DNA of 64,000 bases from Pseudomonadota bacterium (GTDB lineage Bacteria; Desulfobacterota; Binatia; Binatales; Binataceae), in contig JAJPIF010000025.1 in the NCBI GenBank assembly GCA_021324885.1, positions 46,713 to 110,712 on the forward strand, in the 5' to 3' direction. The notes beneath the pieces are model-generated. The model searched no databases and was not told where the DNA came from. It saw only the letters and a list, made by a program, of their open reading frames with translations. The position numbers and the translations under genes are program-made. Shown here piece after piece: positions 16,332 through 35,470 of the stretch; positions within the stretch are counted from its first letter, which is position 1; every line of letters begins with the position of its first letter.

Positions 16332-17945
16332 TCAGGGGAACCAGTACACCGCGCGGGCGCCGCCGGGCCGCGAGTCGATTTCGGGTGTGACGGCGGTTCC
16401 GGTCCTGGCAAACAAGACCGACACGGCATCACGGTAAATAATTTTCCAGCGCCGATCGCCGGCCATGATGCGATAGGCGCCACCTTGCGGATTTATAAGC
16501 ACGAAGTCGTGCGGGTACCGATCGAGTAACCTGTTCCCGCCGGGCCATGCATACAGGAAAGCCATATATTCCTGCAGTACTGAGTCCGGATACACGACTT
16601 CGCACCGCCCATCGACAAAGATCCTGTCATCCGGACCGCCGTGCCAGATCAGGTAAGCGCCCCAGCTCAGTTTGTTCAGTATGTTCCCATGCAGACCGTG
16701 GTCGGTCATGTATTGCACGGCGCCCTTCGGAACCGGGTTCCACGTCCTCAGACGGGTGGAAAACTCGCCACCTAATATCAGCAGGATCAGCGCGGCTTCA
16801 AGTGGAAAAACTACGGTCAGCAGCCGTGAAGGAGCCGCTTTACTCCTCTCCTTCCCGGACTGTCGACGCTTTTCCATAATAAGACCGGCATGATGAGCCA
16901 AAGGAATGCTCAGGGCTATCATCGCCAGCGGCACATTGCGGGAACTGTATATTGCCGCCGCGATAAAGATTGCGGCGACAGCCGCAAGCGGGGCATCCTC
17001 ACCATCCGGCACCGCGACAACCGCACCGAGGAAAGCGACGAACAGGACGAGCGGGATGACGAACTCCATTTCGTGCAACGGCGATTGATGCCATTCGTAG
17101 ATCATTATGTCCGGCAGCGAGAGCCAATCCACAATGAATTTCCTTATAAACGGATGGGACACCGAGTGCAGCACCGTGTCCCAAAGGCCGAAACCGAAGG
17201 GATTGACCAGGGTCGCCATCGCACATGCAATTGTAACCGCACCGATCCTGCAGGCCCGGGAGATCCTCCGCCCCGTTCCCATCTCCCGCCAGCCCACAAA
17301 CAGACTCGTAACTGATAAAGCTCCAAGACCGACGACGAAGCCACCATGCAGATTTGCCCAAAGGGCAAACAGCGGCACCAGCGGCCACATTCGTGCCCGA
17401 CCCTGATAAACCTCGCCGGCGAGAATCGCCATCAGGACGCTCAGCATCGCGATCGTAAATAACTGAGGTCTGAATTGCGCGTAAGGAGCAATACTCGCCG
17501 CTGCCGCGAGCAGAACAATTCTCCGCATGCTGGGCGAAGCCTTGGTCCGGGACAGTCCCGCCGCGAGGCCGGCGACGGCCACGCCAACGCATAGCAGTTT
17601 GACAACCTTCAGCCCTATGATCCCCAGCGAGTCGTAAAAAAAAGCAAAAATAAGCTGCGCCAACCACACATGATTATGCCATGGTTGCACGGGACCCGAA
17701 TACGAAAATGAATTACGCGGCGGTATGTAACCCCCGCTCAGCATTTCGCGCCCCAACAAAATATGCATCCAAAGATCGGGGTCGGCGAAATTTACACAGG
17801 CGGCAGCCGCAATTGCCAGTATCACGAATGCGGGAGAAGACTCCAGCAGCCCAGGTCCGGACTGAACCGGTGTCTGCGGAGCTGTAAGCTGCGGCGCTTC
17901 ACAATTGGCTGCTTGCGGCGAGGCCGTCGCGCGGTTCATTTTCAA
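16332..17945 (-). CDS. large polytopic membrane protein, putative GT-C-fold glycosyltransferase (family unassigned); paralog A1
   Basis: 537 aa; more than 10 predicted TM helices then a C-terminal soluble domain. First-loop acidic motif DPDLWMH. Clearly paralogous to the next gene (shared ADPDLW.H, LWANxHGGF, WK.IYRD). Confidence 0.55.
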   Translation of the reverse strand: MKMNRATASPQAANCEAPQLTAPQTPVQSGPGLLESSPAFVILAIAAAACVNFADPDLWMHILLGREMLSGGYIPPRNSFSYSGPVQPWHNHVWLAQLIFAFFYDSLGIIGLKVVKLLCVGVAVAGLAAGLSRTKASPSMRRIVLLAAAASIAPYAQFRPQLFTIAMLSVLMAILAGEVYQGRARMWPLVPLFALWANLHGGFVVGLGALSVTSLFVGWREMGTGRRISRACRIGAVTIACAMATLVNPFGFGLWDTVLHSVSHPFIRKFIVDWLSLPDIMIYEWHQSPLHEMEFVIPLVLFVAFLGAVVAVPDGEDAPLAAVAAIFIAAAIYSSRNVPLAMIALSIPLAHHAGLIMEKRRQSGKERSKAAPSRLLTVVFPLEAALILLILGGEFSTRLRTWNPVPKGAVQYMTDHGLHGNILNKLSWGAYLIWHGGPDDRIFVDGRCEVVYPDSVLQEYMAFLYAWPGGNRLLDRYPHDFVLINPQGGAYRIMAGDRRWKIIYRDAVSVLFARTGTAVTPEIDSRPGGARAVYWFP

Positions 17946-17979
17946 GACGTCGAGTGTGTTGGATTTCCGCTGCTGTCAG

Positions 17980-19560
17980 CTATGGAAAAAAAGTGGCCAC
18001 GGGGGATTCATTTGAGATCTCGGGCGTAATTGCGGCGTTCGCGTCCGTGGCCTTGGCGTATAAAGAGGCAACCGGGTCGCGGTAGATCAGCTTCCAGCGT
18101 GAATCGGAGTTCACCAATTCAAAAGCGCCGGTACCTGGCTCAACCAGCACGAAATCGTGACGATAATCGTTAAGGACCTTGTTTCCAACTGGCCAGCCGT
18201 ACAAAAAACTGAGATATTGCGACCGCAGTTTTTCTGAATACACGAGTTGATAGCGGCTGTCGATGAAGATTCTGCTTGCCGGCGCAAGGTGCCAAATCAG
18301 ATAGCCGCCCCAGTCGTAATTATTCAAAATGTTGCCGTGAAGACCATGCGATTCCATGAATGCGACCGCACCTTCTGGTACCGGCTCCCAGGTTTTTAGA
18401 CTGCCGGACAATTCACCTCCCACCATTCCGATTATGACCGCGGCGACGAGCGCAAGCGCCGCCCTGGGCTGCGCCGAAATTGTGTTGACAGCATCGGGCC
18501 CGCGATTTCGCGCGGCAATTCCAAGGTGGTGTGTCAGGGGAATGCTTACTGCAATAATCGCCAGCCCGACATTGCGATTGGAGTAAAAGGCTCCTGCAAT
18601 AAAAACCAGCGCAATCGCCGTCAGCCCGGCGTCGTCGAATACCCGAGTCTCCACCAACACCGCAGGCAGACCCACGAACAGCAACAATGGCACGGCATAG
18701 GCGATGGGTTCGGAAATCGACTCCCGCGATGCGTGAAACAGAAAAATCGGGAGGGGCGCCCAATCCGATATTATCGGACGCATAAGCGGATCCGATGCGG
18801 ATTTTAAAAAGGTTGTCCATAGACGGATGCCAAGAGGATTGACGAGCGTGGCCAAGGCGCATCCAAGAGTGACTGCAGCAACTACGGCGGTGCGCGCCAG
18901 CGTGCCTTTGATCAGATATTCGCGCAGTCCGCACGTCAGGACGAAAACGCCCAGCGCGCCGAGTCCCGCAAAACAGCCGGCGTGGAAATTGGCCCACAGT
19001 GCAAAGATCGGGATCAGCGTCCATAATCTTACCGGACCGCGGTATGTCTCTGCCGCCAATTTCGCGATCACTATACTCAACATCACCAAAGTGAAAAGAG
19101 TTGGACGAAACTGGATTTGCGAAATGAGCGCGGTGGCCACAACGAGCAACATCACTCGCTGCGTGCGCGCTGGCGCCCCCGTGCGGCCCAGCGCGACAGC
19201 CAGCGCAATCATCAGGATCGCCGAGCACAGCAGCTTTACCAGCTTGAGACCGAGGACGCCCAGCCATCGGTAAGAGGTCCCAAGCACCACTTCGGACAGC
19301 CATTCGTGATTGTCCCAAGGCAACCCCGACGCCGCATATGAGTACAGGTCGCGGGTCAGAATGTGACCTGTCGCGACCATCCGCTGTCCTGCCAGGACAT
19401 GGACCCAGAGGTCCGGATCGGCATAATTGGACGCACAGGCAAACGCAACCGCCAAAACCACGAAGCCCGGCGCGGACCGCAGGACGCTATAGGCCGGGGC
19501 GACAGGCGTCCGCCCCGCGATTTCCCCTTGCGCCGGGTTGATGACTGATTCTGACGTCAT
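17980..19560 (-). CDS. large polytopic membrane protein, putative GT-C-fold glycosyltransferase; paralog A2
   Basis: ORF to 19602, but ATG at 19560 forms an ATGA overlap with the stop of the upstream gene (19557). Paralog of 16332..17945. Confidence 0.55.
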   Translation of the reverse strand: MTSESVINPAQGEIAGRTPVAPAYSVLRSAPGFVVLAVAFACASNYADPDLWVHVLAGQRMVATGHILTRDLYSYAASGLPWDNHEWLSEVVLGTSYRWLGVLGLKLVKLLCSAILMIALAVALGRTGAPARTQRVMLLVVATALISQIQFRPTLFTLVMLSIVIAKLAAETYRGPVRLWTLIPIFALWANFHAGCFAGLGALGVFVLTCGLREYLIKGTLARTAVVAAVTLGCALATLVNPLGIRLWTTFLKSASDPLMRPIISDWAPLPIFLFHASRESISEPIAYAVPLLLFVGLPAVLVETRVFDDAGLTAIALVFIAGAFYSNRNVGLAIIAVSIPLTHHLGIAARNRGPDAVNTISAQPRAALALVAAVIIGMVGGELSGSLKTWEPVPEGAVAFMESHGLHGNILNNYDWGGYLIWHLAPASRIFIDSRYQLVYSEKLRSQYLSFLYGWPVGNKVLNDYRHDFVLVEPGTGAFELVNSDSRWKLIYRDPVASLYAKATDANAAITPEISNESPVATFFP

Positions 19561-21704
19561 CGCGCGGTGGTCAATGCCGCCTTGGTTGAATCGGCACCGC
19601 AATGGCGGAATGCCGCGGGGCGCAAATCCATGAGCATGAAACGCATAATATCGTCCGGCTCCACATGGTCATCGTATGGTGTCGGATATGGATACAGGAT
19701 GCTGACGGCGTCCGATCCGTATTTCGCGGCGAGCGCCCGGGCGGCTATACCAGAGGCAGGCACACCGACGGCAATCGTGCCCGCGGGTCCAGGTCCGACC
19801 CACAAACCATTGTAGGCGTTGTGCGGCAGGCCCGCGACCAGAAAGTCCAGATCGTCGCTCCAACCCGAGTAATTCAGAAGACCAAGCTTGTAAGCCTTGC
19901 GTGGATCGAGTGTCGCCAAATCCCCGCCTTTGGCGATAAACCGTTGCCCCGCACACAGCATATACCTGAACCACGCATCAGCGGTGTCCAGCTGAAATCG
20001 TTCAAGATCCTGCGCAGACGATCGAGGTGAATAGTCCTGACCCAGGCGATAAAGCGAAACGCCACCCACCTTTATCGGCCTGATTCCAAGCGAGGCGGCG
20101 AGCTCGCGCGCGGATCCTTTCGCGTTGTCCACCACGATAATGTCGTCAATTCCGTAGGCCGAGTTGAATGCCCGAAGCTGCTTACCGGGGTCGGGCAATG
20201 GCAAAGAGTTCACCAGCGCATTCACGATAGGCCATCGGCGAAACTCGGCGGGCGTCGTGCTGAGATGGCCGCCGGGCATTCGAAAATACATCGAGGACTC
20301 AGCCTGCCATGCCATGCTCGGTCCGCGCCGGCCGAACGGTATAATCAGAACATTGTCATTGGGTCGGAGATAATTACGGTAAAGGCCGTCTTCAAAGAAG
20401 GCGGGCGTAGCGTAGGTCGATCTTGGTAAAAATATTGCCGGAACGGGCAAAAGCGCCACCATCGTTGCCCCAACAAAGACTTTTTTGAAGGGGAAGTTCG
20501 GTTCGGACAGCCAGCTGGCGAAGATAACCGCCAGAATCAAAAAATCATAATTAGCAAGCCTCACCGGAAGCGCATGACGAATCAAAGGTAGTCTTTCGAC
20601 GAAAGCCCAGGGGAGCATAACAAGCGCACGCCGCTCGACCTGCAATACCGGGCCCAAAGCGGCCACACTAACGATGATCAGAAGAATACAAAGCATTCGC
20701 GCAGACGGGTCGTGACGGTGACTCCATAACCAGATCCCAGCCACCAGTACCAACGGTATACTCAGATAGGAACCGTTTTCCCAGATGTTCCCGGTAAATC
20801 GGGAGGCTATCGCAGTCGCAGTCAACGGCTGAACCAGCAAAAAATGACCCGGAATGACGAAGCTCAGCAGATCCGCGGAAAATAGTCTGGCAGGAAAAAC
20901 CGGATCTTTCGGCGGCGAGCCTTTAACAAACGCGTAATACCAGAAAGGCGCCAGAAGCAGTCCCGCCAGTATATAAGCAAGCCCTGTCGCCCAGACAGCC
21001 CCAATCAGACGCGGCCTCGTCTCGCGAATCATGATTATACCCAGCACTAACGCCGCGGCACCGAACAAAGTCATCGTTGCGAATACTTCTGTGGAAATCA
21101 GGCATTGTAGCGTAAGCGCGGAAGCAAGACCAAGGGCAAACCTGCGCGGGGGCATCCTGTTTTCAACGAGTAATATCACCAGCAACACGCACAAAGGCGC
21201 AACGAAATTAAAGGTCAGAACCGGATGGCCGCCAATCACGTGAGCGACCTCATAAGGAGAAAAGCCGTAAATGAAGCCGCCCGCCAGCGCGCTGACGAAA
21301 TTACGAATCATATGCCGGCAGAGCAGAAATGCGGTCCATGCGGATAATGCCGGCGCAATCAGGGAGGCGACATTGTAGGCGACAACCGGACCAAGTGCGC
21401 AAGTGATCGGCGCCATTGCGATTGCAACGGCAGGCATCGAAGTCGCCCATGTCAAGTTGTAGCCGGTCCGCGGCCAAACCGCATGCGTGATAAACGGATT
21501 CAGGTGATTGGCAATGGCATGGGGCCACCACTCCAAATACCACATCATCATCGCCGGGTCGCTGAAGTAGCCTATGTGCAAGCGGGCGGGATCGAAGATC
21601 ACCGGAATCCCGAAAAAACAAATCGAAACGCAAATGTAGATTAGTAGAGCCGTCAATCCCCCTTTGTTTAAGCTCGTCGGCTTGAAATCTTTCGCGAAAA
21701 GCAT
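19557..21704 (-). CDS. large polytopic membrane protein with C-terminal extracytoplasmic domain, putative GT-C-like; paralog B1
   Basis: 715 aa; N-terminal multi-TM region (GYFSDPAMMMWYLEWWPHAIANHLNPFITHAVWP) and a C-terminal domain of about 250 aa. Paralog of 21811..23922. Confidence 0.55.
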   Translation of the reverse strand: MLFAKDFKPTSLNKGGLTALLIYICVSICFFGIPVIFDPARLHIGYFSDPAMMMWYLEWWPHAIANHLNPFITHAVWPRTGYNLTWATSMPAVAIAMAPITCALGPVVAYNVASLIAPALSAWTAFLLCRHMIRNFVSALAGGFIYGFSPYEVAHVIGGHPVLTFNFVAPLCVLLVILLVENRMPPRRFALGLASALTLQCLISTEVFATMTLFGAAALVLGIIMIRETRPRLIGAVWATGLAYILAGLLLAPFWYYAFVKGSPPKDPVFPARLFSADLLSFVIPGHFLLVQPLTATAIASRFTGNIWENGSYLSIPLVLVAGIWLWSHRHDPSARMLCILLIIVSVAALGPVLQVERRALVMLPWAFVERLPLIRHALPVRLANYDFLILAVIFASWLSEPNFPFKKVFVGATMVALLPVPAIFLPRSTYATPAFFEDGLYRNYLRPNDNVLIIPFGRRGPSMAWQAESSMYFRMPGGHLSTTPAEFRRWPIVNALVNSLPLPDPGKQLRAFNSAYGIDDIIVVDNAKGSARELAASLGIRPIKVGGVSLYRLGQDYSPRSSAQDLERFQLDTADAWFRYMLCAGQRFIAKGGDLATLDPRKAYKLGLLNYSGWSDDLDFLVAGLPHNAYNGLWVGPGPAGTIAVGVPASGIAARALAAKYGSDAVSILYPYPTPYDDHVEPDDIMRFMLMDLRPAAFRHCGADSTKAALTTAR

Positions 21705-21810
21705 TGAGATTATTATGGGAACGCAATTTCAACGCGAGCATCGGACGAGCATCGGCAAAAGACGACGCCTCGCCCTATTCGGATTTCAAGCCTTCGTGTG
21801 GTTGCGCAGA

Positions 21811-23922
21811 TCATTTGAGTACCGCCCATGACGAGGTTGCGGAATCCAAATCGCAGCGCCGCAATGCCTCCGGGCGCAGGTTCATAAGCAGAAAATGGAC
21901 GTTATCGTCGGGGGCCGCGGTATTCCTGTATTCCCGTGGATAGGGATACAAAACCCGGGTCGCATCATTTTTAAACTGCGCAGCGAGTACATGGGCGGCA
22001 AAACCTGACGCCGGAACGCCGACCGCCACGGTGCCGCCGGCGCCGGGCCCTATCCACAGACCGTTATCGCCCCATTGAAACAATCTGATAAGAGTCTCCA
22101 GATTATCATTCCACCAGGAATCCGGAAGCAGCCCCAGTTCGTGGGCTTTGACCGGGTCGAGTTCCGAGAGCGGGTTTCCCATGGCGAGGTAGCGTTGTGC
22201 GGCGCAGAGCATGTTCAGAAACCACGTCTGCGCCGCGCTTTGCTGAAGGCGTTCGATCGGCTGTACCCGCTCGCGGCCGCCGCCCGTCAGTGGATAGAGA
22301 TACACACCACCAATGCGTTGCGCTTTTATCCCCAGCAAAGAGGGGAGTTCGGCGGCGTTGCCTTCGGCTTTTTGGGTTACGACGATGGCGCTCAGGTTTT
22401 GATCGGCCGCAAAAGCACGCAGTTGCCCGAGAGGATCGGATACTGGAATCGAGGTGAGCAATGTATTAACGACCGGCCAGCGGCGGTAATATTCCGGAAT
22501 CGTCCCGAAGTATCCGCCGGGCATACGAAAGTACATCCATGATTGTGCCTGCCACGCCAGGCTTGGACCGTTGAACGCAAAAGGTATTACAAGAAGATTA
22601 TCGTTGCGGTGAAAATATTTGCGGTAAAGCCCGTCAGCGAAGAATGAAGGCGGATCATAGAGGCATGGATGCAGGAAAAGCAACGGATTCGGAAGGAAGG
22701 CGAGGAGCGTCGCGCACACCATCACTTGCTTGTAGCGCCCGGGTTCCGACAACCACATGCTGAACACGATAGCCAAAACCAGGAATGCGTAGTTGGTAAA
22801 GCGGACCGGCAAAGCGTGTTCGATTAACGGGACTTTCTCCATAACGGCCCAGGGAAAGCGCAGAATCCAGCGCTCGCCAATATGCACCGCCGGACCCAGT
22901 GCGGCGATGAGCACCACAACCAGCAACGCACCGAGCAGCCGCGCTTGCGGCTCGCGCCGGTGACGCCAGAACCAGAAAATGGCAATCGCCAGGAGCGGAA
23001 TACTTAAATATGAACCGGTTTCGGAAAGATTCCCCACGGAGCGCAACCGCACAGCGTCGGCGCCGAACCGGTTAAACAGCATCAATGGGGTGGGAGCGAC
23101 GAAGCTCGTCAAATCGGCGGAAAATTGCCGTATTGCGAGGAGCGGTTCTTTGGGCGCCGATCCTTTGATAAAGACGTAGTACAGGAAAGGACTGAGGATG
23201 ATTATCGCTGATACATAGGCTGTTGCCGCAAGCGGGACGGCGCGGGTGAGGCCGTCACGCCAGCGGCGCGCGATCAGCCATGCCAGTGCAAACGCCACCG
23301 CGCCGAACAGCGTCATGGTCGCGAGCACCTCGGTCGAAATCAATGTCTCGCACACCAGGGCAGCGCAAAACGCGAGGGTGAATTTTGCGGGACCGATACC
23401 ACCCTGGAGCAGCAGGACCACCAGCAAGAGGCACAAAGGCGGGATGAAGTTGAATGTGAGATGGAGATGTCCGCCGAAAACCTCTCCGACCTCGTAGGGC
23501 GAAAAGCCATAGATGAGGCCTCCAGCGAACGAACTTGCGGCATTAGCGGTAAGCCGCCGGCACAAAAGAAAAGCGGCCCATGCGGACAAGGCCGGCGCGG
23601 TCAGCGATGCGGCATTGTAGGCGACGACCGGCCCGAAGATCGCTGTTATCGGAGCGAACGCGGCCGCCACCGCCGGAATCGATGTCGCCCAGGTCAGATT
23701 GTAGCCGGTCGAGGGCCAGACGGCGTAGGTAATGAACGGGTTTATCCGGTGCCACACGGCATACGGCCACCATACCAGGTACCACATCATCATGGAGGGG
23801 TCGCCAAAGTGTCCCCCAATGTAAAAGCGGCTCGGTCCGGCTCCAATCAGGTACGCCCCAAAGAGGAGGATCGAAATCAGAAGATAAAGCACGAACACCG
23901 ACAGGGGCCGGATTCCTAGCAT
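21811..23922 (-). CDS. large polytopic membrane protein, putative GT-C-like; paralog B2
   Basis: 703 aa; shares block-wise identity with B1 (GHFGDPSMMMWYLVWWPYAVWHRINPFITYAVWP etc). Confidence 0.55.
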   Translation of the reverse strand: MLGIRPLSVFVLYLLISILLFGAYLIGAGPSRFYIGGHFGDPSMMMWYLVWWPYAVWHRINPFITYAVWPSTGYNLTWATSIPAVAAAFAPITAIFGPVVAYNAASLTAPALSAWAAFLLCRRLTANAASSFAGGLIYGFSPYEVGEVFGGHLHLTFNFIPPLCLLLVVLLLQGGIGPAKFTLAFCAALVCETLISTEVLATMTLFGAVAFALAWLIARRWRDGLTRAVPLAATAYVSAIIILSPFLYYVFIKGSAPKEPLLAIRQFSADLTSFVAPTPLMLFNRFGADAVRLRSVGNLSETGSYLSIPLLAIAIFWFWRHRREPQARLLGALLVVVLIAALGPAVHIGERWILRFPWAVMEKVPLIEHALPVRFTNYAFLVLAIVFSMWLSEPGRYKQVMVCATLLAFLPNPLLFLHPCLYDPPSFFADGLYRKYFHRNDNLLVIPFAFNGPSLAWQAQSWMYFRMPGGYFGTIPEYYRRWPVVNTLLTSIPVSDPLGQLRAFAADQNLSAIVVTQKAEGNAAELPSLLGIKAQRIGGVYLYPLTGGGRERVQPIERLQQSAAQTWFLNMLCAAQRYLAMGNPLSELDPVKAHELGLLPDSWWNDNLETLIRLFQWGDNGLWIGPGAGGTVAVGVPASGFAAHVLAAQFKNDATRVLYPYPREYRNTAAPDDNVHFLLMNLRPEALRRCDLDSATSSWAVLK

Positions 23923-23935
23923 TTAGGGGTTCCGC

Positions 23936-25270
23936 TCAACCCGCGGTGGCGTGGCGAGAAGTCGGGATGCGAAATAATGGGATGTCTGTCCGCGAGGTCT
24001 TATCATCGATGTTCGTCGCATTGAGAGTAAACGACAAAGTAGCCATATATAAAACGATTGTCGCCACACCATACAACTCAAGGGCCATCTCGTAAAGCCG
24101 ATAGGCTTGACGGTAACCGAGGTACGAGATGATCGCGTGGGGCGGCGGCATGAACATCAGGGTTACGACCGTCAGGGAATAACTCGCCAAGGCCAACCAT
24201 TGTGCAGGGGAATCGATCCGGGAGCGGATGGAGGCGTAGATGATTTGTGAGAAGGGAATCAGGAAAAGCACCATGTAGTGAGGCCATGCTGTGGGTGAGA
24301 GCAACACGGACGCGACGATCCAAAGCGAAAATCCCCGCCAATCCGGGTCATCGCCTGGTTTCAGCTTGAAGGTTGCCCAGATTGTTATCCCTAGAAAGGC
24401 GGCATCCACGCCTGCGATGGTCAACCGCCGGATCAAATCGACGGTCGGCGTAAGTTGCTGCCCCATGGTGAACCAGAACACGCGGGATATAATCGCTTCA
24501 ATGGCGATGTCTATGTGACGGGCCTGTGAAAGATGTCCGAAGGTAAGCGCAACGCCATCCGTGAAAGACAGAGAATTCCTAATTCCAAAGATAGCGAGCG
24601 TAACCAAGCCGCCCGATCCGAGTCCAACACAAGTCCAGGCGAGCACGCGCCACCGGCGCTGAAGCGCCAGGTAAACGATCAGGAGCAAGGGAAAAATTCT
24701 GAGCAGACCGGCTAAAGCGAGAAAAATACCGGCCGCTCGATTCCAGCCCCTCTCCATCGCGCGCATCATCAAGACTAACAGCATCAGAATCGGGATTTTG
24801 CTTTGCGCAAACAGGTAATGCCATCCCAACGGCGGATAGAGCACTACCAAAGCGGTTATGGCCAATCGGCCCCTCGTAGTCAGACCTGAGGACCCTCCAA
24901 GGAGCAGGATGAAGGCGGCGCCGAGAAGGAACGTGTTGAGGCCAAGCCAGACATCGTACGCGGCGCGCTCCGGGATTCGGGCTAGCGGCGAAATCAACAG
25001 CAGAAAAGTGGGAGGATCGGTCGCATGACCGATCGGGCCGGCGTCCAGGCCGAGCTGCCCCCCGAGAGCATTGAAATCCGCCGTGTATGGATTAAGTCCG
25101 TCCCGCAACGCGGTTGCGGACAGATAATATATACTGAAGTCCCAGCGTGTGACTCGCCCCGGCAGTTGGACAATGATGCTCAAACCCTGGAGGATCGCGG
25201 CCACCCAGATCAGAGTAAGGGCGGCGGGCCCTGTTGAAGCTTGTGCAATTCTGGCGGGCGTGATACTCAA
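23936..25270 (-). CDS. glycosyltransferase family 87 (DUF2029, PimE/mannosyltransferase-like) membrane protein
   Basis: 444 aa polytopic. N-terminal DFSIYYLSATALRDGLNPY motif characteristic of DUF2029/GT87. 13-bp gap to the next gene and 48-bp gap from tadG. Confidence 0.55.
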   Translation of the reverse strand: MSITPARIAQASTGPAALTLIWVAAILQGLSIIVQLPGRVTRWDFSIYYLSATALRDGLNPYTADFNALGGQLGLDAGPIGHATDPPTFLLLISPLARIPERAAYDVWLGLNTFLLGAAFILLLGGSSGLTTRGRLAITALVVLYPPLGWHYLFAQSKIPILMLLVLMMRAMERGWNRAAGIFLALAGLLRIFPLLLIVYLALQRRWRVLAWTCVGLGSGGLVTLAIFGIRNSLSFTDGVALTFGHLSQARHIDIAIEAIISRVFWFTMGQQLTPTVDLIRRLTIAGVDAAFLGITIWATFKLKPGDDPDWRGFSLWIVASVLLSPTAWPHYMVLFLIPFSQIIYASIRSRIDSPAQWLALASYSLTVVTLMFMPPPHAIISYLGYRQAYRLYEMALELYGVATIVLYMATLSFTLNATNIDDKTSRTDIPLFRIPTSRHATAG

Positions 25271-25318
25271 GAGGCCGCTATTATAGCTCGTCAGACATAT
25301 GCTTTCAGCCTGCCGTCG

Positions 25319-27515: not shown

Positions 27516-27516
27516 T

Positions 27517-28476
27517 TTAGTAATCCACCCGGGTGAAGCGCGAAATGGTGATCAACGCCAGGACTTCCAAAATCGCGGCGACCTCGACCAGTTTGATGCC
27601 GGTGGGGTCATGGAACAGCATCTGATTATGCTCAGGGGCCACAAAGTTCAACGCAACCAGCAGTATCAGCGGCATGAGTCCGCCGATGAGTGCACTCATT
27701 CGAGGCTGCGCCGTCAAGGCCCGCACTTTCATTTCCAGCCGCTGCCGGTCGCGAATAGTCTTGGACAACTGGCCGCTGATGCCGGCCAGGCTGCTGCCTA
27801 CTTCGGACTGGATTTTGACGGCGACCACCAGGAAGCGGAGATTCTCATCCGGCATGCGTTGGAGCATATACTCCAAGGCGCGAGCCAGCGGCACACCCAG
27901 CCGGTTTTGCTCCAGCACGATCCGCAATTCACTGGAGGCTGGTTCGCCAAACTCCTCGATTGTGACCTGCAAAGCGCGCTGCAAAGTGTGCCCCGCCTGA
28001 AGCGAGGATTTCATCAGGTCGAGGATTTCGGGCAATTGCTTGTCGAACGCCTTAAGCCGCTGGCGCTTGCGCCAGGCGACGTAGAGCAGAGGGGAGCCGC
28101 CGATAACGACACCCGCGACGACGCTTTGGAAGGTCTGCCACCCGCTCCAGACCGCCACGGCAAACCCCGCAGCGGTACCAAGCACCAGCATAAGCAGTAT
28201 CATGTCGCTGGCGCGGACATAGAGCCCGGCTTGCCAAAGATTCTCCTCCAGGCGCTGAGCCAAGTGCAGTTTCGATACCAAGTCGCCAAACATGTTCGAT
28301 TCGGAGGGACGGACATCGCGGGTGATGTCGATATCCGCCAGGTCCACCTCGGGCGACGGACGCGCCATGCGGCTCAGAATCATCTGCTGCTGGCTGGCGT
28401 AGTCCTGGCGGCGCATCGCCACAATGGTCAGCACCAGCACGGTCAGGAAGACAATCAACGGTACAAGAAGCTCCAT
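27517..28476 (-). CDS. tadB: Flp pilus assembly protein TadB (type II secretion system F family)
   Basis: 319 aa; GspF-like domain. 1-bp gap to tadC. Confidence 0.75.
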   Translation of the reverse strand: MELLVPLIVFLTVLVLTIVAMRRQDYASQQQMILSRMARPSPEVDLADIDITRDVRPSESNMFGDLVSKLHLAQRLEENLWQAGLYVRASDMILLMLVLGTAAGFAVAVWSGWQTFQSVVAGVVIGGSPLLYVAWRKRQRLKAFDKQLPEILDLMKSSLQAGHTLQRALQVTIEEFGEPASSELRIVLEQNRLGVPLARALEYMLQRMPDENLRFLVVAVKIQSEVGSSLAGISGQLSKTIRDRQRLEMKVRALTAQPRMSALIGGLMPLILLVALNFVAPEHNQMLFHDPTGIKLVEVAAILEVLALITISRFTRVDY

Positions 28477-28500
28477 CTCGACCTCCCGCCCGGCGCGGCC

Positions 28501-29874
28501 CTAACGCGCGCCAAACAATTTCGAATCCAGATGCAGTCCGGCGGCTTCAAGCCGCCGGGAGTAAACCGAGCGGATCCCCGTGGGCCGGAAGGTGCCGAGC
28601 ACTTTGCCGTCTGGCCCGACTCCAGTGCGCACGAACTCGAACAAGTCCTGCATCGAGATCGCCTCGCCCTCGACGCCGGTGACCTCTGAAATCTTGATCA
28701 GCTTGCGGCTGCCGTCGGAAAGCCGTGCGACCTGCAAAAAGATGTTGATTGCTGAACTGATCTGGGTTCGCATAGCGCGGTCGGGCAGCGCGAAACCGGA
28801 GAACATCATCATCATTTCAAGGCGGTTGAGGCTGTCGCGCGGACTGTTGGCGTGGATAGTGGAAATCGAGCCGTCATGGCCGGTGGACATGGCCTGAAGC
28901 ATGTCGATTACTTCGGCGCCGCGCACCTCGCCGACAACGATGCGGTCGGGACGCATGCGCAGAGAGTTCCGCACCAGGTCGCGCTGGGTTACCTCGCCTT
29001 TGCCTTCCAGATTGGGTGGACGGGTCTCCAGCCGGACCACGTGCGGTTGCTGGAGCGAAAGTTCGGCCGAGTCCTCGATCGTAATGATGCGTTCGTTGTG
29101 CGGTATAAAGGAGGTCAGGCAGTTCAACATCGTGGTTTTGCCCGATCCGGTACCGCCGCAGACCAGCAGATTGAGCCTGGCTTTGACGATCACATTGAGA
29201 AATTCGGCCATCTGCGTGGTCAGAGTGCCATTCTTGATCAGAGTATCGATGGTGAGCGGCTCGCGTCCGAAGCGGCGGATCGACAGAACCGGACCGTCCA
29301 GAGCCAGCGGTGGAATAATCGCGTTGACGCGCGAGCCGTCGGCCAGGCGCGCATCGACCATCGGCGAGGATTCGTCGACGCGGCGGCCAACGCTGGCAAC
29401 GATGCGTCCGATTACGTTGAGCAGATGTTCGTCATCCTGAAAAACGACATCGGTCTTGTACAGTTTGCCGCCGCGCTCGATATAAACCTCGCTGGAGCCG
29501 TTAACCAGGATATCGCTGATGGTATCGTCGCGGAGCAGCGGCTCCAGCGGCCCGAGGCCAAGGATTTCATTTTTGACCTCTTCGATCAGCCGCAGGCGAT
29601 CCGTATCGGTGACCAGCCGATCCTGCTCCTCCAGATGCTCGTTTATAGCCGCCGTCAGTTTGGTCTGGACCTGGGCCTGATCCAGCGACTCGATTTTGCT
29701 CACGTCCAGCGTGTGAAGCAGATAATCGAGCATCTCGCTTTTCAGTTCGCGAAACGCCGCCGCGTCACCGGTCTCCTTTGTAGTATCCCGGCGCTGGGAA
29801 ACCACCGCCAACGAGGAAACCGCCGTTGAGCCGCTGCCGTTCGCGTTTTTCGAGAGACGTTCACTCAGCGGCAT
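28501..29874 (-). CDS. cpaF: CpaF/TadA family pilus assembly ATPase
   Basis: 457 aa; Walker [15 protein letters not shown], secretion-ATPase His box region. Confidence 0.85.
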
Positions 29875-29877
29875 CGC

Positions 29878-31107
29878 TTATCTCCTGGAGTTCTTCCCAT
29901 TACGTGAGAATGAAAAAAACTTGTTGAACAGGCTGGCCTTGGGCTTCTTCTGAGCCAGACCGCAAAGCTCATTCGCCAACGCTTCATATCCGCGGACCAG
30001 CGCCGAACGAGGCGCGACCTTCCACAGATCTTCACCGCGGGTCACAACCAGCCGAATAGAATCATCGTCGCGGGGCAAGCGTGCGGCCAAGGGACGCCCC
30101 AGCGTATTGGTAATATGCTTGTCGCTGATTGGATGGTGCGCAATCCAGCGGTTGAGGACGATTCTGGGAGCGATATTGGAGAGATTGAGCCGGCCAAACA
30201 GGTCCAGGAAACGCCACGCCCCGCGAATCGCGCCGATCGACTGGTCGATCACGTACACTATCTCGTCCGAGTTCTCCCATGCCGCGACCGAACTGTCGTT
30301 GATGTGGCGACCGACATCCACAATCACCACGTCCACCATCTCGAGCAGCATGGACAGAATATCGGTGACCCGCGAAGAAGGAACTTGCTCGCTTTCCTCG
30401 ATCCGGCGCGGTGCGGCGAGCAGATATATCCCCGAGGGATGTCTGGTCAGGGCGGATTCGACCTGCACCGAGTTAAGGCGGATTTTTGCCTCCGCCAGAT
30501 TAATAATCGAGTGCTCGGGTTCGAGGTTGAGGGCAGCGTCAAGGTCGCCGGACTGGAAGTCCAGGTCAACCAACGCAACCTTTTTTTCGGTCGAATGAGC
30601 TAGCGCCAGTGCGCAGTTGGCAGCGATCGTGGTCACGCCGGCGCCGCCCGTCACGCTGACCATCGAAATCAGTCTGCCCCTGGTACCCGGTTGGGGAGCG
30701 GCACTGACTTCGCTGATTTTCAGCAGAGCGCGGGCCAGTTCTCCCTGGTCGACAGGCAGGAACAGAACCTCATCCGCACCGGCACGCAGCGCGGCGCGCA
30801 CGGCTTGCGGCGCCCGCTCCTTCATCAGCGCAATGCGGACCGGTGTCTTGCCTGATTCGGCGCCCGGCGCCGGAATACGCGCGGGATGACGCTCGCTGGT
30901 GAAGACGAACATCACGACATCGGTGGGCTCGCGCATCTGTTCGGGACGCGCGGCGATATCGGCGTCGTGGATATCCAGCGGCTCCTCGGTGGCTTCCAGA
31001 GCCGCGCGGATTTGCGCGCCATTATCGGGATCGGCAAACAGGAGGACGCGCAGTTTGCGCGGTCCGCCTGCCGGCTCATGAAGCAGGATGTCAGCGTCTT
31101 GCGCCAC
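29878..31107 (-). CDS. cpaE: CpaE/TadZ-like pilus localisation protein (pseudo-receiver + deviant ParA/MinD-like ATPase domain)
   Basis: 409 aa. N-terminal receiver-like domain, then a ParA-fold domain whose Walker A reads SVTGGAGVTT (about 30631-30657) instead of KGGxGK[ST], so both lysines are replaced. Confidence 0.7.
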   Translation of the reverse strand: MAQDADILLHEPAGGPRKLRVLLFADPDNGAQIRAALEATEEPLDIHDADIAARPEQMREPTDVVMFVFTSERHPARIPAPGAESGKTPVRIALMKERAPQAVRAALRAGADEVLFLPVDQGELARALLKISEVSAAPQPGTRGRLISMVSVTGGAGVTTIAANCALALAHSTEKKVALVDLDFQSGDLDAALNLEPEHSIINLAEAKIRLNSVQVESALTRHPSGIYLLAAPRRIEESEQVPSSRVTDILSMLLEMVDVVIVDVGRHINDSSVAAWENSDEIVYVIDQSIGAIRGAWRFLDLFGRLNLSNIAPRIVLNRWIAHHPISDKHITNTLGRPLAARLPRDDDSIRLVVTRGEDLWKVAPRSALVRGYEALANELCGLAQKKPKASLFNKFFSFSRNGKNSRR

Positions 31108-31109
31108 TG

Positions 31110-33050
31110 CTAGAATCTCGGCCGCGCCGCGTCCGGCGTGGTCAGCGAGCGGGTCCGGACTTCTTCCGGCGTCAGCGGTCCCTGGCGTTCGGTGGGCAGC
31201 GCCACTTCGGCACCCGGCGGCAGCGGCCGGACGATTTCCGGGGTCACGCTCATTACCAGTTCATCCTTGTCATGCTGCCAGTAGGTTTGTTTGAACAGGC
31301 TGCCCAAATAGGGAATATCGCCCAGATAGGGAACCTTCTGAACCTGGGCTTTGCTGGTATCGAGAATCAAGCCGGCAATGATCAAGGTCTGGTTATCACG
31401 AAGGCGGACGCGAGTTTCAGCCCGGCGGGTCAGAAATGCCGGCACCGTAAAGCCAAATAGCGAAACACCCTGTGAATAGTCCGGCTGCGAGACTTCCGGC
31501 CGCACCGCCAGGTCGATGTCGCCACCACCGATTACGGTCGGCACGAAGATCACCGAAGTACCATACTGCTTGAATACGATCGTGGTGGTCAGGGCCTGGG
31601 TGATTACGATCGGAATTTCGCCGCCGTCCAGAAACTTCGCCTTTTGACCGGAATTGGCCAGCAGTTGCGGCCGGGCCAGAATTCTGGCGAGGTTGTGCTG
31701 CTCGAGAAACTGGAAAAAGGCATAGGTCGACACATTGGAGTTCTGACCGGCTACCGCGTAAGTAATATTTTGTGAATTCAGCAGCGGCATGGTCGTACCG
31801 CCCGGAACCATGCTGATCGGACCTTCGGCGCCGGCGGCCGTGAAGGGGGTGGCAACATAACCGGGGAAGCTCAGAGCAGTAAAGCCGTACTTGGTCAGGG
31901 CCGCCGAAATGTTGACGCCCATCTGCTCCAGTTTGCTGAGGTCAACCTCGGCCACAATCGCATGCAGCATGACCTCCTGATGGCCCGCGATTTCGGTCCA
32001 AATCTGCCGCTCCAGATAGTTGCCCTGGCTGTCCCAGACCACCAGCGTGCTGAAGCCGGGCTTGTGCCCAACCAGCATCACCTGATGATTTCCGAGCACT
32101 TGGACGTCCGCCACTCCGCTATTGGAGATCGAAATCCGGCTGATAGGCCCGCCGAAATCATAGACCTGGGAGGTTCCGGAGGTGATCGTAATGGTGCCCG
32201 GGGGCAGGTTGTGCCGGCCGCCAAAGGCCACGTGATTGACGTAGCTCTCCGAGCCTGCCAACGCACGCGGATTCGTCGTGAACTGCTGGTTGAGCACAGC
32301 GGGCGGCTGTTCATGCCATTGGCTGCCGGTACTGGCGGCGACGTTGGCCGAAAGCGTCTGCGCCGAGCTATCGGACGACGTCACACCGCTGGCGTAGTCC
32401 TCTCCATTCGCTCCGCTGAATGCGGTTGGTCCCACCACTTCGGTCTTGGTGGTGATGCTATCCCCATTTGCGTTCGCAGCGGCCCCTGAGGACGCAGCCG
32501 CCACCGGTCCGGTTCCTGAGTCGGGGGCGCTGGCGACCACGCCTGCACCGGGTCCCATGGTACCGGCCGGCGCAACGGCAGTTTCAGCCTTCGCTATAGG
32601 CGCAGGGTTCGCCACCGCAGCGGTGGCGGGAGCGTACGGAGCGGGAGCGGCAGTTTCGGGATGACCCGCGCCACTCAAGACCGGCGGCGGTGAGGAGCCC
32701 GGATTGAGCGGGCTGCTGGCATTGACAACACCGCCGACGATGACGTGATAAGTTACGTCTTCGCCCCCCACTTTGGTCTGGATTGAACCTTCGCCAGGCT
32801 GAAAACTGAATATGGTCAGCGAATGGGAGCCGGTGTTTTTGACCGTGAAGGCGTTGGGGTTGCTGATGAAGTTGACCACCGGTGCGGCGGTGGTATCGAC
32901 GTTTTTGATTTGATAAGCCTCGCCAGCCTTAAGCGTCACCGTTACCAGTTGCTGGGCATAAACCTGGCCGGGAGCGAGGGCGGCGCCGGTTATTAGGAGA
33001 GCCGCGACCAAGGCTGCGTGAAAATTAAACTGACTCTTAGTAGGCTTCAT
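31110..33050 (-). CDS. cpaC: CpaC/RcpA secretin (type II/III secretion system secretin family)
   Basis: 646 aa with signal peptide. C-terminal secretin domain pattern. Shares its last base with the cpaB stop/start junction (TAATG). Confidence 0.8.
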   Translation of the reverse strand: MKPTKSQFNFHAALVAALLITGAALAPGQVYAQQLVTVTLKAGEAYQIKNVDTTAAPVVNFISNPNAFTVKNTGSHSLTIFSFQPGEGSIQTKVGGEDVTYHVIVGGVVNASSPLNPGSSPPPVLSGAGHPETAAPAPYAPATAAVANPAPIAKAETAVAPAGTMGPGAGVVASAPDSGTGPVAAASSGAAANANGDSITTKTEVVGPTAFSGANGEDYASGVTSSDSSAQTLSANVAASTGSQWHEQPPAVLNQQFTTNPRALAGSESYVNHVAFGGRHNLPPGTITITSGTSQVYDFGGPISRISISNSGVADVQVLGNHQVMLVGHKPGFSTLVVWDSQGNYLERQIWTEIAGHQEVMLHAIVAEVDLSKLEQMGVNISAALTKYGFTALSFPGYVATPFTAAGAEGPISMVPGGTTMPLLNSQNITYAVAGQNSNVSTYAFFQFLEQHNLARILARPQLLANSGQKAKFLDGGEIPIVITQALTTTIVFKQYGTSVIFVPTVIGGGDIDLAVRPEVSQPDYSQGVSLFGFTVPAFLTRRAETRVRLRDNQTLIIAGLILDTSKAQVQKVPYLGDIPYLGSLFKQTYWQHDKDELVMSVTPEIVRPLPPGAEVALPTERQGPLTPEEVRTRSLTTPDAARPRF

Positions 33051-34093
33051 TAGTTGGTGTCACTCCCCATGCTCATCCCGGCACCCCCGCCGGACATCCC
33101 GTCGTTGGAACCGCCTGCGGCGGCGCCGTCATCCGACGCACCGTTGTCATCGCCGCCCAAGCTGGGTGTGCCGACGCCGGATCCATCGGAAGGGCCCGGA
33201 CCCGCGGCGGCAGAAACCCTCAAGGCGCGGCCGTCGCCGCCCAAGGGAATCAATTCACGGCTACTGCCGTTGCGCAGCACTTCGATGGGCGGCGGCCGCC
33301 ACCGGCGAATGATCCTTCTAACTCGTACATGCACCACGGGAGGCGGCGCCTGAGTCACGGGCACCGGCGGTGGGGCGTCACCCATTACCTTGCGGACATT
33401 GCTTCCCGATGTCGGCACATATGCATTGTCGCCATAGCCACGCAGCGCAAGCTGCAGTTTGCCCTGGGTGCTGGCCACCGCAAGGCGCTCAGCCTGGTCC
33501 GGGCTGACCAGCAGGGTTACGACGCGTTCGGGCTGGGGCTGATCCTTGCGCTGAACGGTCTGAGCGGCAGCCAAAACGGGGATATCCTGAAGCACGATCT
33601 TGGAACGACCGGCGTCTTTGTCATTGCCGGTCAGCGAGAGCAGAACATCGACCTTGGTAAACGGCAGGACGAAGCCTGACATGTCGGAGACGTCGTCCAC
33701 CGCCACCGACATCGCGCGCATGTCAGGGGGGATCATCAGGGGCAGCACCCCGGAAGTCTGGTCGGCGGCAGCCAGATGCGACGTCACGAGCGGCTCGTCC
33801 TCGACGAATTCGGCTTTGGCCACGCTGCCGATCACGGAGTTCGAGTCAGTAATTGCTCCCGGCGGCAAAGCATTGCGCGGCCAGCGCGCCAGCTTGACGT
33901 AAGAAGAATCGATTTTGCTGCCAATTGGGATGTCGCGCGCCGCAACGACGATCGGAACCGTCGTGGCCAGGGCCCTTTGCACTTCCAGGTCCTTTTTCTT
34001 CAAGGACGAATAAACGACCATAGAGGCCAGCGCCGCAGCAATCCCCGCAAGCACCAGAAAAATTAAAGGTCTACTCACTTGACCCGCCTCCAA
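33050..34093 (-). CDS. cpaB: Flp pilus assembly protein CpaB/RcpC (SAF domain)
   Basis: 347 aa; N-terminal TM helix, SAF-like region (VVAARDIPIGSKI), Gly/Ser-rich tail. Possible GTG start slightly downstream of 34093. Confidence 0.75.
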   Translation of the reverse strand: MEAGQVSRPLIFLVLAGIAAALASMVVYSSLKKKDLEVQRALATTVPIVVAARDIPIGSKIDSSYVKLARWPRNALPPGAITDSNSVIGSVAKAEFVEDEPLVTSHLAAADQTSGVLPLMIPPDMRAMSVAVDDVSDMSGFVLPFTKVDVLLSLTGNDKDAGRSKIVLQDIPVLAAAQTVQRKDQPQPERVVTLLVSPDQAERLAVASTQGKLQLALRGYGDNAYVPTSGSNVRKVMGDAPPPVPVTQAPPPVVHVRVRRIIRRWRPPPIEVLRNGSSRELIPLGGDGRALRVSAAAGPGPSDGSGVGTPSLGGDDNGASDDGAAAGGSNDGMSGGGAGMSMGSDTN

Positions 34094-34151
34094 CAGCTTT
34101 GTGTAACTGCGCTCCCATCACAGGCCCGACACATTAAAATCTTGTTTTAAA

Positions 34152-34700
34152 TTATTCAACCATCACCGACGTCGAATTGCTGATCGGTGTTGTTTTAAAC
34201 GTCGAGATAAACGGCAAAGAATACCCCAGGAAATCCGTTGGCAGGAAAAGCTTGTTTCCCTTGTATAAATTGTAACTTATCGTGACGGTGAGCTGGTCGC
34301 CCGAGTTGATGGTGCTATCGCTGCTTCCTGTGCTGGTTGTACAGGCGATGTTGGAAATACTTAGCCCGGAACCGCCGGAGCAGCCGTCAAAGCCTGAAGT
34401 GCAAATGGTTGGCGGGGTCGGCACGTTGGCTTCGATGGTTGAATTGTAGGATGTATCGCAGTTTGAGCCGGTACCATGGACTGCGGCATAGCGCGCAGCT
34501 ACATAAGAATATTCACTGACAGCTAATGCTGCGTTAAAAATCAGGGCAAGCTGCAATCCGCCGAACAGGATAAGCAGGACCACGGCGATGGCGATAGCGG
34601 TTTCAACCATCGCCTGCCCCAGCTCAGCTCGACGCCCACGGCGGACCGTATGGCCTGATTTTCTCGGCAAGAAGCTAGCGTATAAGCATGGTTGACTCAT
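34152..34700 (-). CDS. tadE: TadE-family pseudopilin-like protein
   Basis: ORF 34152..34772. TadE N-terminal pattern RRGRRAELGQAMVETAIAIAVVLLILF after internal Met (34700). No clear Shine-Dalgarno for either start, so the start is uncertain. Ser/Thr-rich extracellular part. Confidence 0.6.
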   Translation of the reverse strand: MSQPCLYASFLPRKSGHTVRRGRRAELGQAMVETAIAIAVVLLILFGGLQLALIFNAALAVSEYSYVAARYAAVHGTGSNCDTSYNSTIEANVPTPPTICTSGFDGCSGGSGLSISNIACTTSTGSSDSTINSGDQLTVTISYNLYKGNKLFLPTDFLGYSLPFISTFKTTPISNSTSVMVE

Positions 34701-34827
34701 TGTGATCAGGAGACGCCAATTATTTTCGTTTCGCGGGCCGGCCGGCCACCATTTCCTGCTTAAGCCGTGCATCGATAGGCATGCACGGCTTTCTCAACGC
34801 TCCTTTTATACATCACAAACCGCGAAA

Positions 34828-34855
34828 GCAAAAGAGCGCAGGACCCCCCTTTTGC
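34828..34855 (-). terminator. putative intrinsic terminator/attenuator hairpin between flp1 and tadE
   Basis: Inverted repeat GCAAAAG ... CTTTTGC (7-bp stem, GC-rich 14-nt loop). On the transcribed strand it is followed by UUUCGCGGUUU. It lies in the flp1-tadE gap, where pilin/machinery attenuation is common. Confidence 0.3.
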
Positions 34856-34926
34856 CGATTCCTGCGTGCCGAAGTCATCAAAAATCGAGACCCGGCTGGT
34901 CAACCGCCTTCTGGGTACGAGGGCGC

Positions 34927-35109
34927 CTAAACTGAAGCGGCGACCCCCGTCATCGCGGTGCTGACGTTCGAACCCAGGGCCTTGACAGCGGCGTACGCCG
35001 CGATCGCGATCAGGGCGAGCAGGATAATGTACTCGGTATATCCCTGCCCTTCCTTCGGTTCCCGCATGCGCACCCACGTACCCACGATCCGGTCCTTCAA
35101 ACGTTCCAT
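34927..35109 (-). CDS. flp: Flp family type IVb prepilin
   Basis: 60 aa (alternative Met at 35067). G-X4-EY prepilin processing motif (G QGYT EY) followed by hydrophobic helix IILLALIAIAAYAAV. Confidence 0.75.
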   Translation of the reverse strand: MERLKDRIVGTWVRMREPKEGQGYTEYIILLALIAIAAYAAVKALGSNVSTAMTGVAASV

Positions 35110-35227
35110 CCTTCAGTCCTCCTTGGTTGTTTGTTCTCATCTCGGTGGAGAAGTCCGGTCCTCACACCGTTAAGAGCCTGATTGCGATAAAGCCAGCGTT
35201 GGGCCGTAAAGCTCCCTCTTGCGTCCG

Positions 35228-35470
35228 TTAAACGGACGGGGCGACCTGGTCATACAAACCCGTCGTAAGCTGACTGCCGAAAAACTTCACAGCGCTGTAA
35301 GCCACCAGTGCGATAAGACCGAGGAGGATCACGTACTCGGTATAGCTCTGCGCCTGTTCGCTATTGCTATACAACACGTACAACCGTGTCGCGCGGCTAT
35401 TGATGTTTAGCATGGCCTGCCTCGATTTGGATAGAAGAAGCTCTGACCGCACCTCCGTGGCATTTTTCAT
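35228..35470 (-). CDS. flp: Flp family type IVb prepilin (second copy, Ala at -1)
   Basis: 80 aa (alternative Met at 35413). SEQA QSYT EY VILLGLIALVAY has the Flp X4-EY core, but Ala replaces the usual Gly before it. Confidence 0.65.
   Translation of the reverse strand: MKNATEVRSELLLSKSRQAMLNINSRATRLYVLYSNSEQAQSYTEYVILLGLIALVAYSAVKFFGSQLTTGLYDQVAPSV

Follow-up and report, generated by a model that had tools for sequence, protein, structure and literature searches.

Results

A Tad/Flp pilus locus is linked to GT-C glycosyltransferase genes

In a 64-kb stretch of DNA (the whole stretch that was analysed, hereafter the window) from a metagenome-assembled genome of an uncultured soil bacterium, we found a Tad/Flp pilus locus embedded among nine GT-C-type glycosyltransferase genes from five families, and ten or more further loci, spread over at least three lineages, showed this pairing of Tad and GT-C genes as well. 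The window was traced to contig JBAIIF010000223.1 of assembly GCA_037025025.1, and this contig is also present in SRR5579875 and SRR24677561. Open reading frame (ORF) listing and Pfam scans showed that 15 co-oriented genes run along the minus strand from position 35470 to 16332: a full Tad set, then a GT87-family gene (23936..25270, annotated start 25204), the paralogs B2 (21811..23922) and B1 (19557..21704), and the paralogs A2 (17980..19560) and A1 (16332..17939). An earlier note on this DNA had described the 15-gene string with its two tandem paralog pairs, and both descriptions were borne out, with 53% identity between B1 and B2 and 44% between A1 and A2. These results suggest that the Tad/Flp locus has evolved in association with a putative module for glycosylation in the periplasm that consists of GT-C enzymes only. 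We tentatively propose, with slightly less than even confidence, that this module glycosylates Tad pilus proteins in the periplasm from polyprenyl-phosphate sugars.

Tad linkage recurs in rearranged loci

A B profile was scanned against one genome per species, which gave 78 loci, and all window proteins were then compared with these loci by tblastn. A metagenome scan with an A profile gave 80 loci, and further Tad-linked loci were found by exact-protein look-up; since the locus sample was limited, the locus counts are lower bounds. The B scan returned 320 B-like stretches, several per genome. Among the 78 loci, Tad genes lay within 10 kb only for the four closest B orthologs (L004-L007, 41-51% identity), where B was on the same strand and directly followed TadG or TadC. 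The next gene after B was LA_3751-like in L004 and L005 and A in L006 and L007, and L007 also carried a divergent PMT_2 gene. Four other metagenome or MAG loci had the orders TadB-TadC-x-TadG-x-B-GT87-B-A with 4-nucleotide (nt) overlaps (L082), ...TadG-GT87-GT87-B-A-LA_3751-like with GT87 opposite (L085), B-GT87-Flp-Flp-CpaB-secretin-TadZ-TadA-TadB with PMT_2 opposite (L086), and TadZ-TadA-TadB-TadC-three TadG-like genes-A-B (L087). A quick neighbour-joining tree was built from 125 B-like proteins. The window copies fell in one clade of 11 leaves, and every leaf inside this clade was Tad-linked (11/11), compared with none outside it (0/114).

The linkage was kept in eight other loci of the window's broad clade despite rearrangement. 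Order and orientation inside the block varied among loci, and in L086 the B-GT87 pair stood upstream of flp rather than downstream. The outer flanks of the window (kinase, PP2C, VWA) were not shared with these loci by tblastn. With the flanks unshared and the order reversed in L086, the linkage therefore survives rearrangement. GC content was even over the region, with no compositional sign of an island, and thus no sign of recent transfer was seen. In L086, two sigma-54 activator genes (6774-9912) are located directly upstream of B-GT87-flp, which suggests sigma-54 control of the combined block.

The A family gave a second line of evidence. A paralogs at 35-49% identity were not Tad-linked, and a census of 121 genes around these non-Tad paralogs revealed no dominant partner (DAO 7, methyltransferases 7, GT87 3, PMT_2 3) and so offered no hint of what the family does in general. 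Distant A homologs (23-32% identity) were Tad-linked in two further layouts, while two others of this kind (P0223 and P0234) had no Tad genes nearby. The first layout was seen in L130, where two GT87 genes diverge from A, and A is followed by two flp genes, CpaB, secretin, TadZ, TadA, TadB and TadC, and in L170, where GT87-PMT_2-GT87 diverges from A-Flp-CpaB-...-TadC. The A protein of L170 aligned with A2 over its full length at 26% identity, and every motif was kept. The second layout was the single-strand order TadZ-TadA-TadB-TadC-TPR-TPR-methyltransferase-GT2-A-GT87 of L133. Along its full length, the GT2 protein of this locus matched PgfS (9e-87) and ArnC (2e-52); it also had hydrophobic C-terminal segments, and by sequence it looks like an undecaprenyl-phosphate (Und-P) sugar synthase. 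Because the window clade, L130/L170 and L133 represent three different layouts, chance adjacency in GT-C-rich genomes is unlikely, and the attachment of GT-C genes to the Tad locus is not accidental.

A and B are GT-C proteins by predicted fold

The earlier note had asked for a classification of the five proteins after TadG by hidden Markov models. For the GT87 protein this succeeded, with a Pfam PF09594 match (4.6e-21, 76.1 bits vs a cutoff of 25), whereas A1, A2, B1 and B2 matched no Pfam or NCBIfam model, permissive thresholds included. PDB profile searches for solved structures with 89 (A) and 87 (B) sequences gave noise only. AlphaFold2 models were then built on the same numbers of homologs and reached a mean confidence score (pLDDT) of 93 for A and 91 for B, and in structural comparisons both matched solved GT-C enzymes only. 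For A, an independent Foldseek search placed PglB first (5.8e-06), followed by STT3, DPY19 and ArnT; the fold was nearest PglB/STT3/Pmt4/DPY19, and the scores barely separated oligosaccharyltransferases (OSTs) from Pmt4, DPY19 and ArnT. The B fold was nearest AftD/STT3/ArnT, with the arabinofuranosyltransferase AftD as the best match and AftA also near. The models thus assign both A and B to the GT-C fold.

Conserved motifs agree with the acidic first-loop motifs proposed in the earlier note. In A, the motifs ADPDLWxH and NHEWL follow the first transmembrane helix; within ADPDLWxH the acidic residues D48 and D50 are conserved in 82/89 and 85/89 sequences, and H85-E86-W87 is nearly invariant in the 89-sequence alignment. 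Read from the fold, the first-loop residues of A would lie on the periplasmic side. The C-terminal domain of A carries the motif (D/E)WG(E/G)YLIWH...(K/R)VFIDGR. In B, Asp41 is nearly invariant and a W-x3-WWP motif follows the first helix. The extracytoplasmic C-terminal domains extend from about residue 385 to the end in A and from about residue 430 to the end in B (about 270 residues in B2, periplasmic), and both are alpha/beta in the models. The note's picture of five GT-C-like proteins with such domains held in its first part, by Pfam for GT87 and by fold for A and B; the GT87 protein (23936-25270) itself lacks a large C-terminal extracytoplasmic domain.

Window B1 and B2 gave no match to PF19830 (DUF6311) even at E 0.1, and PF19830 was the precomputed assignment of many full-length B homologs at 33-46% identity, with one PTPS_related and one STT3 assignment. 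In a 50%-identity library, the A family comprised 41,217 representative clusters at E <=1e-3 and 17,283 at 1e-30, and ten sampled distant members had no Pfam match. Family A is very large, GT-C by fold and covered by no family model, and B is a DUF6311-related family whose window copies fall below the model.

GT-C enzymes work at the extracytoplasmic face and use polyprenyl-phosphate-linked sugars. A would use a donor of this kind, at which the PgfS/ArnC-like synthase encoded directly upstream of the L133 A homolog hints indirectly. By analogy, the tandem pairs (A1/A2, B1/B2 and the two PMT_2 proteins described below) may form heterodimers or make different linkages.

Gene layout of the Tad/Flp operon

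The upstream part of the string contains the components of a Tad/Flp system: Flp pilins, TadA, two T2SSF proteins, CpaB/RcpC, a secretin, TadZ and TadE/TadG, all encoded on the minus strand. The two Flp-type ORFs carry the Flp motif and processing motifs that read ...G/QGYTEY and ...S/YTEY (slashes mark the processing site). flp2 lies at 35228..35413 (ORF to 35470), with the mature N-terminus ...AQS/YTEYVILL..., and flp1 at 34927..35109, with ...EGQG/YTEYIILL... and the C-terminus GSNVSTAMTGVAASV; the flp1 product is 53% identical to the Flp of L004. They are followed by a TadE-like pseudopilin (34152..34772, Pfam TadE 5.5e-06, 22% Ser+Thr), CpaB/RcpC (33050..34093, Pfam RcpC 1.2e-25 plus SAF, with a Gly/Ser/Asp-rich C-terminal tail) and the CpaC/RcpA secretin (31110..33050, Pfam Secretin 1.4e-41 plus pil_N). 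The secretin contains an unusually long low-complexity linker of about 150 residues (about residues 100-260) that is rich in Ala, Pro, Ser and Thr. Next come the TadZ/CpaE ParA-like ATPase (29878..31107, Pfam AAA_31 plus CbiA), the TadA/CpaF secretion ATPase (28501..29874, Pfam T2SSE 1.3e-67), the platform proteins TadB (27517..28476) and TadC (26577..27515), both Pfam T2SSF, and a Ser/Thr/Cys/Pro-rich TadG-like pseudopilin (25319..26416, Pfam Tad 8.3e-09, 20% Ser+Thr). No prepilin peptidase gene (TadV/CpaA, Peptidase_A24) was found at 16.3-42.6 kb or in the large window ORFs, with small ORFs scanned incompletely, and it may sit elsewhere in the genome. The host is presumably diderm because a secretin is present, and homologs of the membrane proteins were labelled mostly Candidatus Binataceae or 'Deltaproteobacteria bacterium'.

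The junctions given in the earlier note were reproduced. The tadG to GT87 gap is 48 nt from the TTG start and 114 nt from the GTG start annotated in GenBank, the GT87 to B2 gap is 13 nt, B1 and A2 overlap by the 4 nt of ATGA, and A2 and A1 are 34-40 nt apart; B2 and B1 are separated by 106 nt. The note also had the Tad operon running straight into the glycosyltransferase genes. These genes share one orientation, and a terminator scan came up empty for every intergenic gap of the 15-gene string, but the tadG-GT87 gap holds a sigma-70-like CTGAAA-17-TATAAT site at 25280..25308 (minus strand), a 10/12 match and the best in the 20-kb region. As the region had 9 such matches in total vs 8.4 in shuffled sequences, this site is a lead only. 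It is a possible internal promoter, from which the glycosyltransferase genes might also be expressed on their own, which makes a single transcript uncertain.

Four more GT-C genes flank the operon

The earlier note had counted five non-pilus genes. This was too few, as the stretch 35710-42641 holds another four GT-C genes together with a gene for a PAP2 phosphatase. Divergent from flp2, a PMT_2 (ArnT/PMT-like) GT-C enzyme is encoded at 35710..37179 on the plus strand (Pfam PMT_2 3.6e-08), and its homologs adjoin Tad genes in L007 and L086. A second PMT_2 enzyme (37213..38796, plus strand, Pfam PMT_2 1.3e-13) and a polytopic putative glycosyltransferase of the LA_3751/LA_3752 family (38796..40229, plus strand, NCBIfam NF047440 2.8e-12, below its cutoff) follow; LA_3751-like homologs stand after B in L004 and L005 and after A in L085. 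On the minus strand are a PAP2_3 membrane phosphatase (40395..41411, Pfam PAP2_3 2.8e-32) and a second GT87 glycosyltransferase (41439..42641, Pfam GT87 2.1e-36, 126.3 bits vs a cutoff of 25), homologs of which were found in L085 and L086. The remaining window encodes unrelated metabolism and regulators. Scans of the 64-kb window found no phosphoglycosyltransferase, Wzx/Wzy, cytoplasmic glycosyltransferase or polysaccharide exporter.

In L083/L084 (8986-11491), a PAP2_3 gene directly precedes a non-Tad A paralog (47% identity). Should PAP2_3 act in the recycling of polyprenyl diphosphate, the donor of A might be diphosphate-linked, as it is for OSTs. At the other end of the window string, a plus-strand triad encoding a VWA protein, a PP2C phosphatase and a Ser/Thr kinase (BON domain) at 12807-16234 converges on A1, and an FHA-GAF-SpoIIE (PP2C-type) phosphatase is encoded at the edge of the GT87 block in L130 (5005-6678) and L170 (4181-5827). 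These genes may represent a recurring Ser/Thr-phosphorylation control element near Tad and A loci.

Discussion

A proposed model of periplasmic glycosylation of Tad pilus proteins

In the proposed mechanism, a GT2 synthase encoded elsewhere in the genome (inside the locus in L133) would load sugars on polyprenyl phosphate in the cytoplasm, and the lipid-linked sugars would be flipped to the periplasmic face. One GT-C enzyme would then put the first sugar on the periplasm-exposed part of a Tad protein, with the PglB/STT3-like A or a PMT_2 protein as the best candidate for this initiating step. GT87, B and the LA_3751-like protein would extend or branch the glycan, one sugar per step, and the glycoprotein would leave the cell via the Tad machine itself. 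This division of labour is the likeliest one, and we infer it together with the donor type, the protein acceptor, the step order and co-transcription. Candidate acceptors are the Flp C-termini, the Ser/Thr-rich TadE and TadG proteins, and the low-complexity linkers of CpaB and the secretin. The earlier note had placed the processing of Flp pilins on the periplasmic side, which is imprecise: the leader is cleaved at the cytoplasmic face, and the C-terminal part of the pilin alone is periplasmic.

The earlier note had offered two predictions, glycosylation of pilins or pseudopilins and a co-regulated surface glycan; gene content favours a protein acceptor. The island holds no initiating, polymerising or exporting genes, which suggests that the glycan would be assembled on the periplasmic acceptor itself and leave the cell by machinery that is already there. 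A protein acceptor is also favoured by L130 and L170, where A is the gene just ahead of flp. In these two loci, and with the order B-GT87-flp in L086, a GT-C gene is adjacent to and co-oriented with a pilin gene, while in the window the GT-C genes occupy the distal end of the same gene string as flp. Flp1 of Aggregatibacter actinomycetemcomitans is reported to be glycosylated (PMC6182317, citing Inoue 2000), and RcpC has been implicated in Flp glycosylation (PMC12307814, introduction); neither paper names a transferase.

Several observations weigh against glycosylation of Tad proteins. Most members of the A and B families occur away from Tad genes, so these families are not intrinsically pilus-specific, and neither a polyprenyl-phosphate sugar synthase nor a flippase was found in the window. 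The promoter-like site in the tadG-GT87 gap weighs in the same direction. Nine GT-C enzymes are many for a 40-residue pilin and more typical of lipoglycan or cell-wall glycan assembly. To our knowledge, the characterised GT87 enzymes (PimE/Rv2181 family) act on lipid-linked mannans. A Ser/Thr-rich C-terminus is a general Flp feature and not specific to these loci. Finally, no density for glycans is seen on the Tad pilus of Caulobacter (PMC10710030), and Tad pilins therefore need not be glycosylated.

We also considered whether an OST-like A might N-glycosylate Flp. Window Flp1, the L004 Flp (122-301) and the L006 Flp (1944-2099) share an N-(V/I)-(S/T) sequon at one C-terminal position; Flp2 and the pilins of L086, L130 and L170 lack an N-x-S/T sequon. 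With the sequon patchy and its position fitting the general Flp consensus, we dropped it as evidence.

A bolder version of the proposal, which we consider clearly unlikely, is that the A family is a new class of protein glycosyltransferases whose Tad-linked members are the missing Flp-glycosylating enzymes, with GT87, B and PMT_2 extending the glycan; no earlier pathway dedicated to Tad-pilus glycosylation would then be known. An archaeal origin is assumed for Tad pili, and AglB glycosylates archaeal pili, so the resemblance of A to OSTs in fold could be a trace of an ancient association with pili.

Alternative explanations

The GT-C battery could instead build a separate envelope or surface glycan in the periplasm, such as a lipoglycan, a decoration of lipopolysaccharide or cell wall, or an adhesive polymer, that cells use alongside Tad pili to attach or aggregate and that is not placed on pilus proteins. 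We consider this rather unlikely, though with a real chance of being correct. A set of nine GT-C enzymes, drawn from five families and accompanied by a PAP2 phosphatase, is reminiscent of the mycobacterial lines for lipomannan (LM), lipoarabinomannan (LAM) and arabinogalactan, the best structural match of B is AftD, and the GT87 family includes PimE/Rv2181, whose acceptors are lipid-linked mannans. The numerous A and B paralogs that are mostly unlinked to Tad also fit such a glycan, and the PAP2_3 gene before a non-Tad A paralog hints at pilus-independent lipid-carrier chemistry. However, the island has no gene for lipid-anchor synthesis, an initiating transferase, a polymerase, a flippase or outer-membrane export, and such genes are also missing among the Pfam-annotated genes of the related loci. 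Also against it are the location of A just ahead of flp in L130 and L170 and the fact that Tad genes are the sole conserved partners of the module across lineages.

A second alternative is that the GT-C enzymes aid pilus biogenesis indirectly, by modifying the secretin and CpaB linkers or the local envelope for assembly, stability or protection against proteases and phages, with the fibre itself undecorated. The roughly 150-residue Ala/Pro/Ser/Thr-rich linker of the secretin and the Gly/Ser/Asp-rich tail of CpaB fit this reading; streptococcal GT-C systems glycosylate such disordered regions of membrane-associated proteins (PMC12041528), and RcpC has been implicated in Flp glycosylation (PMC12307814, introduction). 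This explanation is very unlikely, but as a sub-case of protein glycosylation it is inseparable by sequence data from the glycosylation of Tad proteins proposed above. Against it, secretin alignments begin only at about residue 200-250 in most loci.

The lack of any functional link, with Tad adjacency as inherited synteny or chance among abundant GT-C genes that are transcribed from their own promoter, has a slim chance: it is in line with the 320 B-like stretches (several per genome), the 41,217 representative clusters of A, the promoter-like TATAAT in the tadG-GT87 gap and the inconstant neighbours of non-Tad A paralogs, but it is opposed by the 11/11 vs 0/114 split in the B tree, by linkage that is kept though order, orientation and flanking genes change, by its recurrence with A homologs of 23-32% identity plus GT87/PMT_2 in L130, L170 and L133, and by translational coupling in the block, with 4-nt overlaps in the window and L082.

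Significance

Many bacteria use Tad/Flp pili to adhere, to aggregate and to form biofilms. The conserved gene module described here provides concrete candidates for the Flp glycosyltransferase; modification of Flp1 was reported more than 20 years ago (Inoue 2000, cited in PMC6182317). Two uncharacterised GT-C families also gain a first functional context, one of them very large and without a Pfam or NCBIfam model. In Pseudomonas aeruginosa, the glycans of type IVa pilins protect the pilus against phages (bioRxiv 10.1101/150227). Were this to hold here too, phage shielding by glycans would reach beyond type IVa pili to the Tad branch, and also to Binataceae-like soil lineages that are abundant and uncultured.

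Comparison with known systems

Full-text literature searches returned no paper that joins Tad pili with GT-C enzymes and none that mentions DUF6311, in agreement with the earlier note, which knew of no characterised Tad locus with a GT-C battery. The nearest pilus system is TfpW of P. aeruginosa group IV (Pa5196/PA7), a GT-C enzyme that is encoded next to pilA, co-transcribed with it, and arabinosylates PilA, drawing on a polyprenyl-phosphate monosaccharide to make the glycan in the periplasm (bioRxiv 10.1101/2020.04.19.049825). The order of A and then flp in L130 and L170 mirrors the pilA-tfpW adjacency. However, TfpW serves type IVa pili rather than Tad/Flp pili. It is also one enzyme on its own, in contrast to the five to nine GT-C genes, drawn from five families, that are found here. 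Compared by description only, the C-terminal domain of TfpW is a TPR domain and the enzyme has an Emb-like proline motif, whereas the C-terminal domains of A and B are alpha/beta. No TPR Pfam match was found in A or B, and no D-arabinofuranose genes (DprE1/DprE2) were found in the window.

The Pgf operon of Streptococcus mutans (PgfS, PgfM1, PgfE and PgfM2) combines a GT-A Und-P-sugar synthase with two GT-C enzymes and O-glycosylates adjacently encoded adhesins on Ser/Thr-rich regions outside the cytoplasm, as well as disordered regions (PMC12041528, PMC5856776). The GT2 protein of L133 resembles this system in its match to the PgfS model (9e-87), whereas the window has no PgfS-like gene. The Pgf GT-C enzymes belong to the YfhO family, for which A, B and GT87 have no Pfam match, and their host is Gram-positive, with sortase-anchored adhesins and membrane proteins as substrates instead of a pilus system.

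Differences from the OSTs (PglB/AglB/STT3, GT66) are also clear. A has no Pfam STT3 match, and its PDB profile search was empty at E <=10; at a place comparable to that of the OST motif WWDYG, A has (D/E)WG(E/G)YLIWH, and the N-x-S/T sequon is found only in some of the linked Flp pilins. An assignment of A to PglB/AglB/STT3 was rejected on these sequence features, namely no WWDYG and no match to the STT3 model.

The mycobacterial lines (PimE/Rv2181 of GT87, AftA-D and EmbA-C) are similar in that several periplasmic GT-C enzymes, GT87 among them, act in series with polyprenyl-phosphate sugars as donors, and B is structurally nearest to mycobacterial AftD and AftA. The tandem paralogs recall the EmbA-EmbB and Pmt1-Pmt2 heterodimers. 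Unlike the module described here, these lines and actinobacterial Pmt act on phosphatidylinositol mannosides, LM, LAM and arabinogalactan or on secreted proteins generally, and they are not linked to pilus genes. Taken together, GT-C glycosylation encoded beside the filament or adhesin that it serves is a known principle; what would be new here is its attachment to Tad and its use of the uncharacterised family B and of family A, which has no Pfam or NCBIfam model.

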